Shown piece by piece: positions 19,999-44,474 of a DNA stretch of 64,000 nucleotides; positions within the stretch are counted from its first letter, which is position 1, and each line of letters opens with the position of its first letter. The translations under genes were made by a program, and so were the position numbers. The DNA comes from an uncultured virus (IMG/VR IMGVR_UViG_3300025530_000290). Lineage: Duplodnaviria; Heunggongvirae; Uroviricota; Caudoviricetes. The stretch is taken from the IMG/VR virus record IMGVR_UViG_3300025530_000290, one strand, 5' to 3'. The notes below the pieces were generated by a model, which saw only the letters and a program-made list of their open reading frames with translations, was not told where the DNA came from and made no database searches.

Positions 19999-21351
19999 AT
20001 GGCGTACGCGGAGAGGCGCGGTAAAACCTGGCGCGCACGCTACAAGGAACCAGACGGAACCTGGGGGTCCGAGTCCGGTTTCCCCACCAAAACCGCTGCT
20101 CTCGCCTACGGCCGCGAACAGGAATCCCGCATCCGCCGCGGCGACTGGACAGACCCCAAAGCCGGGCAGATCACGCTCGCCGACTTCATAGAGCAGAAGT
20201 ACCTGCAGGCGCTCGACGGCGCCCCCAACACGGTCGCCAGGCACGAAAGCCACATCGGCCGCCACATCCTGCCGAAGTGGGGGCGCTGGCAGCTCGGCGA
20301 GCTGGTGATGGCGCACGTGGAAATCAAGGCGTGGCTCAAGGATCTCCGCCAGGAGTACAAGGCGACGACGGTTGCCAGCATCTTCCAGGTGCTCACCGCG
20401 ATCATGGACACGGCTGTGGAGGCGCGGCTCATCCCCGCCTCGCCGTGCCGGAGCATCAAGCTCAAACTCGACGGCTACGAGACCTCGCGCGGGCTGGTCG
20501 CCACGCCCGTGCAGGTGCTACGCGCCGCGATGCGGCTCCACCGGATACGCCACCGAATCCGCCGGCAGGGCGGCCTCACCGAGCTCGTCCTGTGCCTGAT
20601 GGCCTTCTACACCGGCGCACGCTGGGGAGAACTGGTCGGCCAGACCCGGAACGAGTACGACCAGGTCAACAAGGCCATCTGGGTCGTGGAGCCGCTGAAG
20701 GAGGTGTCCGGCCGCCTGTCCAAGGGCGGCCGCCCGCTCGACGCGCCCCCCAGCACGCCGAGAAAACGGCCGGCCCGCGACGGCGGCACCAAAACCCCGG
20801 CGGGCACCCGCTGGATCCACCTGCCGGACTGGCTGGCGGCACTGTATGAGGAGCTGCTGGCCTCACACCAGCATCGGTTCGTGTTCGTGGGGCCGCTGGG
20901 CGGGATGATGTACCGCACCAGCTATCGAGCGGTGTGGCGGCGCGTGTGGGACGGCGACCCCGGCAACCAGGACCCGGCGTTCCACGCGCCGATCCTGCCC
21001 GGCCTGACGTTCCACGAGTCCCGGCACACGCTGCGCACGTGGCTGGCGGAGGACGGCATCCCCGAGGTGGCCCGCGCGGCCCGGCTCGGCCACAAGCTGC
21101 CGGGCGTGGCCGACGTGTATGAGCACGTCACGCCGGCCATGATCGGCCGGACGCTGCGGTGCCTGACCCGGCGCTGGCACCAGTCCATCCGGGATCTGCG
21201 CCCCGACGAGCGGGAGCTGCTGGTGACGCTGGTGCCGTCCCTGGCGGGTGAGGTGGAGCGGGCGATGTCCGCCCGCCGCAGGCGCGGCGGGGAAACGATC
21301 TCCCAGATCTCTCCCATGCAGGTGGGAAGGCGCCCGGTTGTGTCGGCCTGA
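19999..21351 (+). CDS. int: Tyrosine integrase
   Basis: N-terminal arm-binding domain; catalytic TGARWGEL, TKT, HESRHT, RLGH, VYEHV. Confidence 0.93.
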   Translation: MAYAERRGKTWRARYKEPDGTWGSESGFPTKTAALAYGREQESRIRRGDWTDPKAGQITLADFIEQKYLQALDGAPNTVARHESHIGRHILPKWGRWQLGELVMAHVEIKAWLKDLRQEYKATTVASIFQVLTAIMDTAVEARLIPASPCRSIKLKLDGYETSRGLVATPVQVLRAAMRLHRIRHRIRRQGGLTELVLCLMAFYTGARWGELVGQTRNEYDQVNKAIWVVEPLKEVSGRLSKGGRPLDAPPSTPRKRPARDGGTKTPAGTRWIHLPDWLAALYEELLASHQHRFVFVGPLGGMMYRTSYRAVWRRVWDGDPGNQDPAFHAPILPGLTFHESRHTLRTWLAEDGIPEVARAARLGHKLPGVADVYEHVTPAMIGRTLRCLTRRWHQSIRDLRPDERELLVTLVPSLAGEVERAMSARRRRGGETISQISPMQVGRRPVVSA

Positions 21352-37859: not shown

Positions 37860-37888
37860 TTGTGCTTCCTAAGTTAGGAAGCTAATGT
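37860..37888 (+). promoter_or_regulatory. Sigma70-type promoter with palindromic operator in the spacer
   Basis: TTGTGC-17 nt-TAATGT; GCTTCCTAA-G-TTAGGAAGC at 37864-37882. Confidence 0.75.
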
Positions 37889-37940
37889 GGTTGTCACAGG
37901 TCAGGGGAACGGCCCCAGACCACGACCGGAAGGAACCGGC

Positions 37941-38264
37941 ATGACGCCCACCACCACGCTCGCCCGCGGATACAAGCTCGGCAAGGACTACCAGGCCGAC
38001 GGCTGGTACGGCTACATCAACGGGGGTTGCTACACCAACGAGCAGGCGGACGCCCTCGTCGACGCCCTCCTGGACGCGATGGAGCGCGAGGTCGACAAGC
38101 TCCTCCCCGCGGGCTGCCACTGGTACCCGACCCTGGCCGAGATCCAGGGGCCGATCACCGCCACCCTCGAGGGCATCGACCTCGACGACCTGCTCGAGGA
38201 GGCCGCCGAGGCGGTCGCCGAGCGCTTCGAGGAGATCGAGGCCGAAGTCACCGGCCGCAAGTAG
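37941..38264 (+). CDS. Small acidic protein, candidate anti-CRISPR/anti-defence
   Basis: 107 aa, D/E-rich; RBS AAGGA; first gene after operator-promoter, upstream of aca2-like gene. Confidence 0.65.
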   Translation: MTPTTTLARGYKLGKDYQADGWYGYINGGCYTNEQADALVDALLDAMEREVDKLLPAGCHWYPTLAEIQGPITATLEGIDLDDLLEEAAEAVAERFEEIEAEVTGRK

Positions 38265-38325
38265 ACCCGTCCGAACCGGTTGCCCCCGGCCCGCCGCCGG
38301 GGGCACGTCCATGTCTGGAGCCACC

Positions 38326-38766
38326 ATGCCCGAACGCACATACAGCGACCCGCCGGGGATGCCGGAGGACGAGCGGATGACCCCTGCCGAACTCAAGGTC
38401 GTCCGCGAATACCTGGGCCTGTCCGGCTCCGCCCTGGCGAAGCTACTTCAGGTCTCCGACCGGACCGTGCGCCACTGGGAGGAGGGGAAATACCCCATCC
38501 CTGACGGGGTGAGGCTGGAGATCGAAAACCTTGAGCGGATCACGGCGGAGTTCGTCAGCGGCGTGATCGCAAAGCTCATGGACTACCCAGGGGACCCCGT
38601 CGTGGTGACATACCGGAACGACAAGGAGTACCACGCCGCCCACCCGGAGAGCCCGTTCCCGGCATCCTGGCACCGCGCGGTGATCGCCCGGGTGGCGCAA
38701 GAGGTGCCGGCGCTGAGCATCGTGTACGCGAGCGACATCCCCAAGACAGTCCGGCCGCAGCTGTAG
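38326..38766 (+). CDS. Aca2/YdiL (DUF1870)-like HTH regulator
   Basis: MTPAELKVVREYLGLS...VSDRTVRHWEEGKYPIPDGV...TYRNDKEYHAAHP...WHRAVIARV. Confidence 0.75.
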   Translation: MPERTYSDPPGMPEDERMTPAELKVVREYLGLSGSALAKLLQVSDRTVRHWEEGKYPIPDGVRLEIENLERITAEFVSGVIAKLMDYPGDPVVVTYRNDKEYHAAHPESPFPASWHRAVIARVAQEVPALSIVYASDIPKTVRPQL

Positions 38767-39076
38767 GCCAGCGACCGCCATGACCATCGAGGCGATCAAC
38801 AGAGGGCAGGTGTCCCACAAGGACAAGGTTCGCCTCGGCGCGCTCTTCAACTCCCGCATGGCCTTTCTCCAGGCCACCACCGGGCAGGAAACCCCCGAAT
38901 CCGCCCAGGCACCCGAGACCAAGCAACCCGCGCTCACCTGAGGACCCCGATGACCACCAACCAGCAGAACCCGGCGGCGGGCACCCTGCCCGCCGCCCCG
39001 GCGGACCGGCCGCGTAGCTACCTCCGCGACACAACCGCCCCCGCTCTTCGTGTGGAGGAGCGGGGGCTCCAACTTT

Positions 39077-39129
39077 TAAACCCTAGGGCTTACGAACCCT
39101 AGACACTCGTAAACCCTAGGGTTTATATT
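39077..39129 (+). promoter_or_regulatory. Promoter with repeated palindromic operators
   Basis: TAAACCCTAGGGTTTA 39110-39125, near-copy 39077-39092; TAGACA-18 nt-TATATT. Confidence 0.7.
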
Positions 39130-39153: not shown

Positions 39154-39507
39154 ATGACCTGGAACAAGCTCACCCGCCGCCAGCAGGACTACGCGCGCCG
39201 GCTCTCCGCCCTCATCCCGCACACCCAGTGCCCCAGCGCGACCGTCTCCCAGGTCGCCAAGCACCTCGACGCCGTCGCGCAGGCCGCGCGGGAGACCGGG
39301 CACGGCCCGATCGAGGGCGAGGTCCTCCGCCGCCTGTGCGAGCGCACCGGCTGGGCATACATCGCCCCCGCCCGCAAGATGACGGCCCGGGAGCTCGCCG
39401 CCGAGCTCGGCGTGTCGATCACCACCATCTACCGCCGCTGCCGCCAGCACCTGCTGGACGCCGTCAAGGACGCGCAGGGCCGCTGGGTCATCACCGTCAC
39501 CGCCTGA
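39154..39507 (+). CDS. Small protein with C-terminal HTH
   Basis: MTARELAAELGVSITTIYRRCR...GRWVI; RBS AAAGGAG. Confidence 0.7.
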   Translation: MTWNKLTRRQQDYARRLSALIPHTQCPSATVSQVAKHLDAVAQAARETGHGPIEGEVLRRLCERTGWAYIAPARKMTARELAAELGVSITTIYRRCRQHLLDAVKDAQGRWVITVTA

Positions 39508-43283: not shown

Positions 43284-44474
43284 CTACACAGAGAGGAGGA
43301 CGGGCTGAGGTTCGCGGTGCATCGGCCTGGCAACCCGAAGCCCTTCCCGCGCAGCCACCGCATGCCCTGCGGCGGTATCCCTGATGTTCCTGGCCGCGTT
43401 CACATCAGCGTTGGCGGCGTATCCGCAGGACCGGCACCGGTAACGTGCTTGGCTCTCGCGCGCTTCCCGGTCCACGATCCCGCACGCCGAGCAACGCTGG
43501 CTCGTGTACGCGGGATTGACCTTCACGACCCTTCCCGGAGCCTTGTGCTCCAGGCGGGTTACGAGCTGTCCCCACCCGGCGGCGAGGATGCTCCGGTTGA
43601 GCCCAGACTTCTGCCGGACGTTACGGCCCGGCGCGTCGAGGGTGCCTTTCGCCGAGCGGATCATGTTGGAGATCTTCAGGTCCTCGACGACGATCATGTC
43701 GAACCGGCGCGCGAGGTCGGTGGAGGTCTTCTCCACCCAGTCCTTGCGCCGATCGCTCTCACGGGCCCTCAGCCGGGCGATGGCCAGCTTGACCCGCGCC
43801 CGCCGGTTAGATCCTCGCTTAGCTCGGGCGAGTTTCCGCTGCAACCGGCGCAGCCGTGCTTTCTCCGTCTCGCGCAGGCCTGGCGCGGTCAGCAGTTCCC
43901 CGGTGGACAGCGCCACCGACACGGCGACACCCCGGTCCACCCCGACTATCTCGCCCGTGCCCGGCGCGGGGATCGGGTGTGGCGCGACGGCGAACGCCAC
44001 GTGCCAACGGCCCGCACGGTCCCGGGTGATCCGGTACGACTTCGCTTCCGGTGGAAGCGGGCGTGACAGGCGGAACCGCACCCATCCCGCTTTGGGCACC
44101 CAGACCTCGCCGACCTTCCGGGATACCTTGCGTACGCGGTAATCCTTGCCGACGACACGGAATCCCTCATGCCGTCCCGCCTTGCGCCAGGTCGGCCGCC
44201 TGTGCGTCCCGGCGAAGTAGTTCGCCATCGCCTGGGCGAAGTCCCTGAGCGCCTGCTGCTGGATGTTCACCGACCCGGCGCGCAGCCAGTCGAACACGGC
44301 GCGGGCCTCGGTGAGCTGGCGGCACTGCTCGGCGAACCCTGGCGCGGACCTGCGGCCCGGACGCCAAAACGACTGCTGTTCGACAGCGAGGTTCCACACG
44401 TACCGGGCGTGCGCGCAGTGCAGAAGCATCTGCTGCTCCTGCTGCGGCGTGGGGTACATCCGAAACCTCGACAT
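43284..44474 (-). CDS. tnpB: RNA-guided endonuclease TnpB
   Basis: RFRMYPT, VGVDRG, VVEDL, YTSQRCSACG, CRSCG, NADVNAARNI. Confidence 0.93.
   Translation of the reverse strand: MSRFRMYPTPQQEQQMLLHCAHARYVWNLAVEQQSFWRPGRRSAPGFAEQCRQLTEARAVFDWLRAGSVNIQQQALRDFAQAMANYFAGTHRRPTWRKAGRHEGFRVVGKDYRVRKVSRKVGEVWVPKAGWVRFRLSRPLPPEAKSYRITRDRAGRWHVAFAVAPHPIPAPGTGEIVGVDRGVAVSVALSTGELLTAPGLRETEKARLRRLQRKLARAKRGSNRRARVKLAIARLRARESDRRKDWVEKTSTDLARRFDMIVVEDLKISNMIRSAKGTLDAPGRNVRQKSGLNRSILAAGWGQLVTRLEHKAPGRVVKVNPAYTSQRCSACGIVDREARESQARYRCRSCGYAANADVNAARNIRDTAAGHAVAAREGLRVARPMHREPQPVLLSV

Follow-up and report, generated by a model that had tools for sequence, protein, structure and literature searches.

The 64,000-nucleotide stretch of viral DNA analysed here (the window; IMG/VR record IMGVR_UViG_3300025530_000290) carries a compact two-gene cassette that is, in our judgement, probably an autoregulated operon of the acr-aca2 type, of the actinobacterial kind, with a cargo that most likely inhibits a component of host defence. 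The regulatory reading is well supported, and the architecture, an acr-aca2 operon with an actinobacterial RNA motif, is of an already published type. Since the regulatory design has been published, the gain lies in the cargo and not in the principle. The first gene encodes an uncharacterised protein, P0001, and is a new member among the genes under Aca2 control.

Genomic context of the cassette

The window has a G+C content of 70% and represents a temperate siphovirus-like phage of Streptomyces type, with replication genes, an integrase gene (Table 1) and genes for tail, tape-measure, connector and endolysin proteins at 46-64 kb on the minus strand. The cassette is located in an accessory region with the integrase gene on one side and the lysis genes on the other. 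Its upstream neighbours encode a protein with a Cas6e-type RAMP match (PF08798, 68 bits), a weak match to Cas7 and a PAPS-reductase (CysH-like) protein; the first-pass annotation regards this neighbourhood as a type IV-B locus. The nearest virus record, a 31-kb fragment (G001), lacks both aca2 and the CysH-like gene. Contigs from RNA libraries (runs X9 and X18) have loose ends at 38777 and 38784, which show that related strains diverge directly after aca2.

Table 1. Coordinates of the cassette and of other features in the window.
Feature	Position	Strand	Basis
Replication genes	1.6-18 kb		
Integrase	19999-21348		
Promoter: -35 TTGTGC (37860-37865), 17-nt spacer, -10 TAATGT (37883-37888)	37860..37888	+	Read from sequence; kept in related leaders
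Operator: perfect 9+9 inverted repeat GCTTCCTAA-G-TTAGGAAGC, 19 nt, fills promoter spacer	37864..37882	.	Presumed Aca2-like dimer site
Leader hairpin 1: GGTCAGGGG-AACGG-CCCCAGACC (GGTC-A-GGGG / CCCC-A-GACC, loop AACGG)	37899..37921	+	MFE fold; conservation
Leader hairpin 2: CCGG-AAGGAA-CCGG, Shine-Dalgarno AAGGA in loop, 1 nt before ATG	37926..37939	+	MFE fold; conservation
Cargo gene: 107-aa acidic protein P0001, pI 4.14, candidate anti-defence	37941..38264	+	Translation; relatives; covered by RNA contigs
10-bp GC stem-loop between cargo gene and aca2	38281..38305	+	Sequence fold; similar stems in related loci
aca2-like gene: 146-aa HTH putative autorepressor P0002, ribosome-binding site GGAG 38317-38320	38326..38766	+	PF08965; PDB sequence matches
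Right-hand cassette junction	38777..38784	.	Contigs of related strains part here

The regulator and its presumed operator

Judged by its sequence, the protein encoded by the second gene, P0002, is an HTH protein of the Aca2/YdiL family, as the first-pass annotation had proposed. It matched the Pfam family Aca2_YdiL (PF08965) with 27.4 bits against a cut-off of 23.8, the match covering profile positions 1-96 of 118. In a search against PDB sequences Aca2 matched best, filling the top four places (8w35, 7vjo, 7b5j and 7ezy; E 5e-7 to 5e-6), and these matches span both the HTH and the C-terminal domain of P0002 (residues 18-116). The protein has 561 relatives at E <= 1e-5 which, where named by their sources, are called DUF1870 or Aca2/YdiL-like.

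The residues of Aca2 from Pectobacterium phage ZF40 that are described as contacting DNA are R30, Q33, Y34, W35 and R39, and mutation of Y34 and R39, which contact the operator, abolishes binding (PMC8633003). The five residues align to R46, R49, H50, W51 and K55 of P0002, such that the Arg and the Trp are kept and three residues differ; R46 and W51 are invariant. In the ZF40 protein, helix 1 and the C-terminal strand (E5, Y108) hold the homodimer together. The residue aligned to E5 in P0002 is E22, which is invariant in 24 relatives.

Both the promoter (TTGTGC-N17-TAATGT) and the perfect inverted repeat in its spacer were found where the first-pass annotation had placed them, but the description of the promoter as near-consensus had to be abandoned: each hexamer agrees with the sigma-70 consensus at only 3 of 6 positions and a scan for consensus promoters did not list the site. 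The promoter call is based instead on conservation among related leaders, of which 39 out of 40 distinct sequences keep the TTG of the -35 element and most have TA-N3-T as the -10 element. When up to 2 mismatches are allowed, the core of the inverted repeat has a single occurrence in the window (0.06 expected; at least one in 6 of 100 shuffles), and a palindrome is located at the same place in the related loci. A putative inverted-repeat operator overlapping the operon promoter, as in the acr-aca2 architecture, can thus be read from the sequence.

Six loci (L006, L017, L026, L036, L088 and L093) have a variant palindrome, CACCC/GCCC...GGGYG, at the same place. All six regulators carry Arg at the position of K55 and Ser, Ala or Asn, never His, at that of H50. 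Among the 39 loci with other operators, 37 of which are CTTCC-type, Lys is found at the K55 position in 38 and His at the H50 position in 35. The residues H50 and K55, which differ from ZF40, thus covary with the type of operator, a pattern that would fit altered specificity better than lost binding. Because its position is conserved and its sequence covaries with the recognition residues, we take the palindrome to be the presumed operator; this is the strongest evidence in the analysis for that assignment, although the six variant loci may be one clade, so that the link between operator and residues would represent few independent events. The inverted repeat accordingly looks and behaves like the operator of an Aca2-like protein, to which P0002 would be predicted to bind.

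A conserved structured leader

The 5' untranslated region contains the stem-loop seen in the first-pass annotation, with one correction: the structure is present (leader hairpin 1), but its stem is interrupted by one A.A mismatch. Its sequence has one occurrence in the window and was matched in 0 of 100 shuffles. A second hairpin, which holds the ribosome-binding site, had been overlooked in that annotation. Both hairpins are part of the minimum-free-energy fold, and the leader thereby contains two conserved 5'UTR hairpins of which one is at the ribosome-binding site, the arrangement characteristic of acr-aca2 operons.

The folding energy of the leader is unremarkable (z = -1.8; an equal or better fold in 11 of 200 shuffles), and it is on their conservation that we base the structures. 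Forty related leaders share a common plan consisting of TTGCGC, a CTTCC...GGAAG palindrome, a -10 element that is mostly TA-N3-T, GGTCAGGGG-loop-CCCCAGACC, CCGG-AAGGA(A/C)-CCGG and ATG. Over these leaders 95% of the cells are paired in hairpin 1, in which 2 pairs have changed on both sides, and 96.9% in hairpin 2, in which 2 of the 4 pairs show compensatory changes (CG to UA). For the three helices together, 90.8% of the cells are paired and 5 pairs have changed on both sides, which is reached by 3 of 500 shuffles. RNAalifold on its own recovered the cores of the helices, including that of hairpin 1, with a covariation term of only -0.35, and the number of further pair types in the alignment was no better than in shuffles (146 of 500). 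The covariation is thin because the leaders are nearly identical, and on balance these data support a structured leader. Rfam contains no family for it and gave only a chance match to a miRNA (E 0.28). We also considered whether hairpin 2 mimics an operator half-site, with which it shares GGAAG, and rejected this reading because the leader is unchanged where the operator is of the variant type.

Related loci share the control region and exchange the cargo

Homologues of P0002 were found at 68 genome loci and 37 IMG/VR loci, in 41 records from plasmids of Streptomyces, Prescottella, Gordonia and Mycobacterium and in 10 from actinophages, among them gp87 of Streptomyces phage Gilgamesh with 73.7% identity. 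As for described acr-aca2 operons, carriage is on mobile elements: phage genes surround the cassette in the window, and its relatives are located on phages, plasmids and IMG/VR contigs. Promoter and leader sequences of six loci were combined into a profile which, applied at E <= 1e-5, retrieved 54 loci, or 45 after removal of 9 exact duplicates (the window and 44 others). Each of the 45 has an Aca2-like match on the strand of the site, 244-1231 nt downstream of it.

To characterise the slot between leader and aca2, we parsed the cargo genes in 42 of the 45 loci, which gave 51 proteins, one to two per locus. The genes in front of the Aca2-like genes are exchanged between related loci. The pI is 4.05-4.51 for 43 of the 51 proteins, which fall into several families without detectable mutual similarity. 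Of these acidic proteins, 33 form one single-linkage cluster that is joined by multidomain proteins and in which four recurring modules can be discerned by eye; the remaining ten make up five small clusters between which no similarity was detectable. One of these five is that of P0001, shared with Gilgamesh gp86 and a protein from one further locus (L007). The other 8 cargo proteins are basic (pI 9.5-10.3), HTH-like, 167-176 aa in size and come first in order, before an acidic gene. Three loci (L003, L006 and L101) encode fusions of an acidic domain with the Aca2 domain. Searches of the cargo families against Pfam and PHROGs gave no match. Behind aca2, 11 of the 44 other loci have a gene of about 290 aa that is absent from the window.

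The proteins encoded in the flanks of 39 cassette loci are diverse, with integrases, NERD, DUF6233, DNA methylase, GmrSD_C, PIN, a helicase with HA domains and NUDIX represented.

The cargo protein P0001

P0001 is as acidic as first described, with 22 D+E against 8 K+R, and it is encoded within an open frame (37887-38264) with a GC3 of 0.91. Searches among 1.84 billion proteins yielded 92 representative relatives with E <= 1e-3, of which 58 reach E <= 1e-10; nearly all are acidic and about 100-120 aa long. Some are fused to an N-terminal Phd/YefM domain (P0041, 39.7 bits), to an N-terminal HTH or to a C-terminal NUDIX domain (P0102). The family is distantly related to the commonest cargo family of about 110 aa (hhalign probability 93%, E 3.3e-7, 56 columns), a relation that is seen with family alignments; comparing the alignment of 59 P0001-family sequences (A4) with the single sequence P0007 gave a probability of 8%. 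Counted as one superfamily, these proteins occupy the slot in 15 of the 42 parsed loci.

The distribution of the family is sparse: its profile was found in 1 of 401 sampled Streptomycetaceae genomes, and the family alignment A6 matched 2 viral loci. The homologue in phage Gilgamesh, gp86 (39% identity, E 5e-21), precedes the Aca2-like gp87, a gene with a palindromic operator. Three relatives (L112, L113 and L114) are located in regions with no Aca2 gene within 2.5 kb. A tblastn search of phage and plasmid collections at E <= 1e-3 gave no hits, but this search is insensitive for P0001 as judged by the homologue gp86, which it failed to retrieve.

No relative of known function was found for P0001 in Pfam, NCBIfam, PHROGs, PADLOC, the PDB sequences or the ESM Atlas. 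PHROGs contributed one match at E 0.04, and the best hit of the PDB profile search was a designed repeat protein (E 0.0058); the ESM Atlas had no usable match for P0001 or for a family-a cargo. Pfam, NCBIfam, PHROGs and the PDB profile search likewise revealed no likeness to a described Acr family. DNA-mimic anti-restriction proteins of the Ocr/ArdA type display an acidic surface array that mimics B-DNA, and P0001 would fit this type by its composition. Its gene is located in the position that acr genes take in such operons, and an anti-defence role is our best guess for it, one that we hold to be somewhat better than even.

RNA-library contigs and the intergenic hairpin

The stretch is present in 6 metatranscriptome runs. 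Each of the 4 runs that were examined has a contig beginning at 37915, which is about 20 nt past the predicted start of transcription, and the contigs with this start have a depth above that of their flanks. Three runs yielded a contig of 360-362 nt (37915-38274/38276) at depths of 43, 9.3 and 22.5, and the next contig, which starts inside or after the intergenic hairpin, had depths of 3.1, 3.1 and 3.5; in 3 of 4 runs the contigs thus break at the hairpin and the depth falls there. The fourth run (X9) contained a single contig, 37915-38784, at a depth of 26.1 compared with about 5 on both flanks (5.55 after 38784). Such contigs give neither strand, transcript ends nor expression level, and may stem from DNA in the RNA libraries, so we take them as a weak hint that the cassette is transcribed as a separate unit and as an equally weak hint that the hairpin marks a step down in RNA abundance. 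Perfect stems of at least 8 bp are located just upstream of aca2 in 28 of the 45 loci as compared to 24 of 450 control windows. The GC stem-loop is possibly an attenuator or a 3' stabiliser.

Comparison with described systems

According to PMC13551039, Aca2 represses transcription at an inverted repeat in the promoter and translation by binding to two conserved 5'UTR hairpins. Among the closest described operons is acrIF8-aca2 of phage ZF40 (7b5j, 7vjo, 7ezy and 8w35), in which, as in the window, a small cargo gene is followed by a gene for an Aca2-family HTH protein; the two also share, as far as the ZF40 operon is described, an inverted-repeat operator in the promoter and two 5'UTR hairpins with the second at the ribosome-binding site, and the residues aligned to R30 and W35 are kept in P0002. 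They differ in that the regulators have roughly 30% identical residues in the HMMER alignment (counted by eye), the half-site of the operator is CTTCC-type here and GTTC in ZF40, and P0002 has R, H and K in place of Q33, Y34 and R39. Moreover, a GC hairpin separates the two genes in the window, and the candidate cargo P0001 is unrelated to AcrIF8.

PMC13551039 credits Birkholz et al. 2024 with the definition of two RNA motifs for acr-aca2 operons, 'proteo' and 'actino'. The cassette agrees with the operons of the actino motif in phylum, regulator family and presence of a conserved leader RNA motif, and is most likely an instance of this motif as it is described there; Streptomyces is not mentioned in one supplement of that 2026 paper (PMC13551039).

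Members of the regulator family also occur outside acr contexts (PMC8434428). YdiL (1S4K) and SO3848 (2OX6), which are Aca2-fold proteins without known acr partners, belong to PF08965 as does P0002, but are described as stand-alone chromosomal genes (PMC8434428), whereas P0002 is encoded on a phage next to an exchanged cargo slot and behind a conserved leader. The fusions of acidic and Aca2 domains in L003, L006 and L101, and those of P0001-family domains to HTH or Phd/YefM, resemble the self-regulating Acr-Aca fusions AcrIIA1 and AcrIF24 named in PMC8633003. Unlike these, the window has two separate genes, and the fusions found here, of either kind, are putative inhibitors.

Proposed mechanism and alternative explanations

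We propose that the promoter would fire upon entry of the phage, giving synthesis of the acidic 107-aa cargo and then, from behind the intergenic hairpin, of the Aca2-like repressor. A dimer of the repressor would bind to the inverted repeat between the -35 and -10 elements and turn transcription off and, by analogy with Aca2 of ZF40, the repressor may also bind to the two leader hairpins and block translation of the cargo. The cargo itself is predicted to bind and inhibit a component of the host defence, with CRISPR-Cas being one option among several.

A more specific form of this option, in line with the candidate anti-CRISPR of the first-pass annotation, is that the cargo is an anti-CRISPR that binds to Cascade or Cas3 of a type I-E system in the host. 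The small and acidic P0001 has the acr position of an Aca2 operon, and a Gordonia plasmid carries an operon of Aca2 type that ends with a lone Cas5 gene (PF09704, 63.8 bits), so at least one such operon is tied to class 1 CRISPR. However, P0001 resembles no solved or catalogued Acr in the databases searched, and PMC13551039, which predicts control by Aca1 or Aca2 for 450 genes, reports that many such genes act against defence without being acr genes and that fewer than half have an assigned function. We therefore consider a type I-E anti-CRISPR rather unlikely. Much the same degree of belief is given to a cargo that is a moron with a role outside defence, such as a host-takeover factor, a counter-silencing DNA mimic or an inhibitor of competing elements, placed under an Aca2-like switch for early genes. 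The occurrence of regulators of this family in contexts without acr (PMC8434428) agrees with such a role, and so does a P. equi plasmid locus (L117) in which the leader directly precedes the regulator with no cargo in between; the fusions to Phd/YefM (P0041), HTH and NUDIX (P0102) fit a general protein-binding module, and the neighbouring genes are heterogeneous. Against it, the rapid exchange of unrelated but uniformly acidic small proteins under one conserved control region is the pattern of an arms race, and the cassette is carried by phages and plasmids alike. It is exceedingly improbable that the two genes constitute a toxin-antitoxin-like module, with the HTH protein serving as a HigA-type antitoxin to a toxin encoded upstream. 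The order of a small gene followed by an HTH gene resembles higBA, the HTH of P0002 matches HigA-2 (5jaa, E 1.2e-4) and models of MqsA- and Y4mF-type antitoxins match it below their cut-offs. Yet the HigA-2 match covers the HTH only (residues 17-69), in contrast to the Aca2 matches that extend through the C-terminal domain, and the genes in the partner position, one to two per locus, encode acidic proteins of unrelated families that match no toxin model.

A separate question is whether the cassette cooperates with the putative type IV-B locus next to it, by controlling it or by sharing a counter-defence task. The first-pass annotation had taken the adjacency as support for a counter-defence role of the IV-B locus, and the cassette does lie directly downstream on the same strand, about 120 nt past the last small gene after the CysH-like gene. 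The comparative data do not bear this out: the Cas7-like gene, the CysH-like gene and the neighbouring small genes (two upstream; on either side) of the window have counterparts in 0 of the 44 other cassette loci, and 0 of 140 neighbour proteins from 39 cassette loci belong to Cas families at E <= 1e-6. The cassette also has its own promoter, the RNA-library contigs are deeper over it than over the upstream genes, and strain variants part right after it. A meaningful adjacency is thus very unlikely, and given the absence of the IV-B genes from the other cassette loci we interpret it as two accessory modules that share a moron region. A scan of viral sequences with the CysH-like protein revealed no relatives.

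Returning to the acr-aca2-type operon, which we prefer, we tentatively suggest a wider model that is possible rather than probable. The Aca2-controlled slot in phages and plasmids of actinomycetes may be a hypervariable landing site for unrelated families of acidic inhibitors. The P0001 superfamily, as its commonest occupant, could be a new family of inhibitors without a described relative that acts against actinobacterial defence, be it type I-E CRISPR, restriction or BREX/Pgl-type systems. The conserved GC hairpin might then be an attenuator that sets a high ratio of cargo to repressor and, if so, it would be a layer of control that is not described for acr-aca operons in the literature consulted here.

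A literature search identified no report in which an anti-CRISPR, or an anti-defence protein of another kind, had been tested in Streptomyces or in phages of this genus. Together, the conserved promoter, operator and leader provide a very specific search handle, which in a single pass recovered 45 loci and some ten families of acidic proteins of small size. These loci constitute a prioritised list of candidates for anti-defence screens in an industrially important genus in which barriers to phages and plasmids limit genetic work. The covariation between operators and recognition residues furthermore offers a natural set of orthogonal repressor-operator pairs.

Stem-loop between cargo and aca2

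A GC-rich stem-loop lies just 5' of the aca2 gene, and among related loci (L001-L102) its place is kept while its sequence varies. Perfect stems of at least 8 bp just upstream of aca2 were found in 28 of the 45 cassette loci, as compared to 24 of 450 control windows. In three of the four metatranscriptome runs with contigs placed on the window, the contig depth fell 3- to 14-fold with a break at this stem-loop, which may be an attenuator that fixes the ratio of cargo to repressor.

Domain fusions and variant cassettes

Three loci contained one gene each of 329-338 aa, in which a long acidic N-terminal part is joined to the Aca2 domain, and these genes stand behind the same promoter and operator as the cassette. 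In this they resemble self-regulating Acr-Aca fusions. Domains of the family of the acidic cargo protein (P0001) are likewise found in fusions, in which the partner is a DNA-binding domain of antitoxin type, an HTH domain or, in one case, a NUDIX hydrolase. The N-terminal partner was Phd/YefM in P0041, P0044 and P0029 (confirmed by Pfam in P0041 only, the others being read by eye) and an HTH domain in P0022, P0049, P0052 and P0074 (all read by eye), while the single C-terminal NUDIX hydrolase, in P0102, was confirmed by Pfam.

In eight cassettes, the first gene after the leader codes for a basic protein of 163-176 aa with an N-terminal HTH_17-like motif and is followed by an acidic gene. A basic protein of this type also precedes the P0001 homologue of L112, and no Aca2 gene was found within 2.5 kb of that homologue. 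The basic protein may serve as an alternative regulator.

The L116 operator, GCTTCCGACTTAGGAAGC, is of the same type as that of the window and precedes an acidic gene of 137 aa (pI 4.24) and a 286-aa Aca2-related regulator, which extends the range of the cassette to a phage of a thermophilic actinomycete. The pGOR1 operator is a palindrome unlike that of the window (TGTCCTA-TTT-TAGGACA), and the operon codes for an acidic protein of 83 aa (pI 4.05), another of 301 aa whose charge is not part of this description, one that resembles Aca2 (22.5 bits with PF08965, slightly under the cut-off) and a lone Cas5 (PF09704, 63.8 bits), which may be a decoy of a Cas subunit. A second Gordonia plasmid record (H15) matched the Aca2-like gene with an identical score.

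Features of the cassette and of related loci
Feature	Locus and position	Remark
GC-rich stem-loop	window 38281-38305	between last cargo gene and aca2
Acidic-Aca2 fusion genes	L003 6089-7084; L006 3383-4399; L101 2398-3387	
Basic HTH_17-like protein	L008, L016, L022, L025, L076, L078, L082, L084	first in cassette
Basic HTH_17-like protein	L112 1967-2458	directly 5' of P0001 homologue
Cassette-type locus of Thermobifida phage P1312	L116 about 1005-1451	CTTCC-type operator
pGOR1 operon	L118 282-2585	Gordonia plasmid; same design as cassette
phrog_15934 gene (~290 aa)	L002 7109-7987 and 10 other loci	

Right edge and neighbourhood of the cassette

After aca2, and on the same strand, 11 of the 44 other loci contained a phrog_15934 gene of unknown function, which had no match in Pfam or among PDB sequences and is not present in the window. 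Beyond window positions 38777-38784, contigs from two RNA libraries bear different sequences, and related strains of the same habitat therefore have the cassette in common and diverge immediately 3' of aca2.

Further downstream, the sole match to a sigma-70-like promoter in this region, TAGACA-18-TATATT (10 of 12 positions), lies in an AT-richer stretch (39070-39129). It is closely followed by an HTH_17 gene (39154-39507), for which the PADLOC model mad1 was a further match (E = 1.2e-8). The phage accessory region also holds an IS605-family OrfB/TnpB gene (PF07282, PF01385) on the minus strand (43284-44474).
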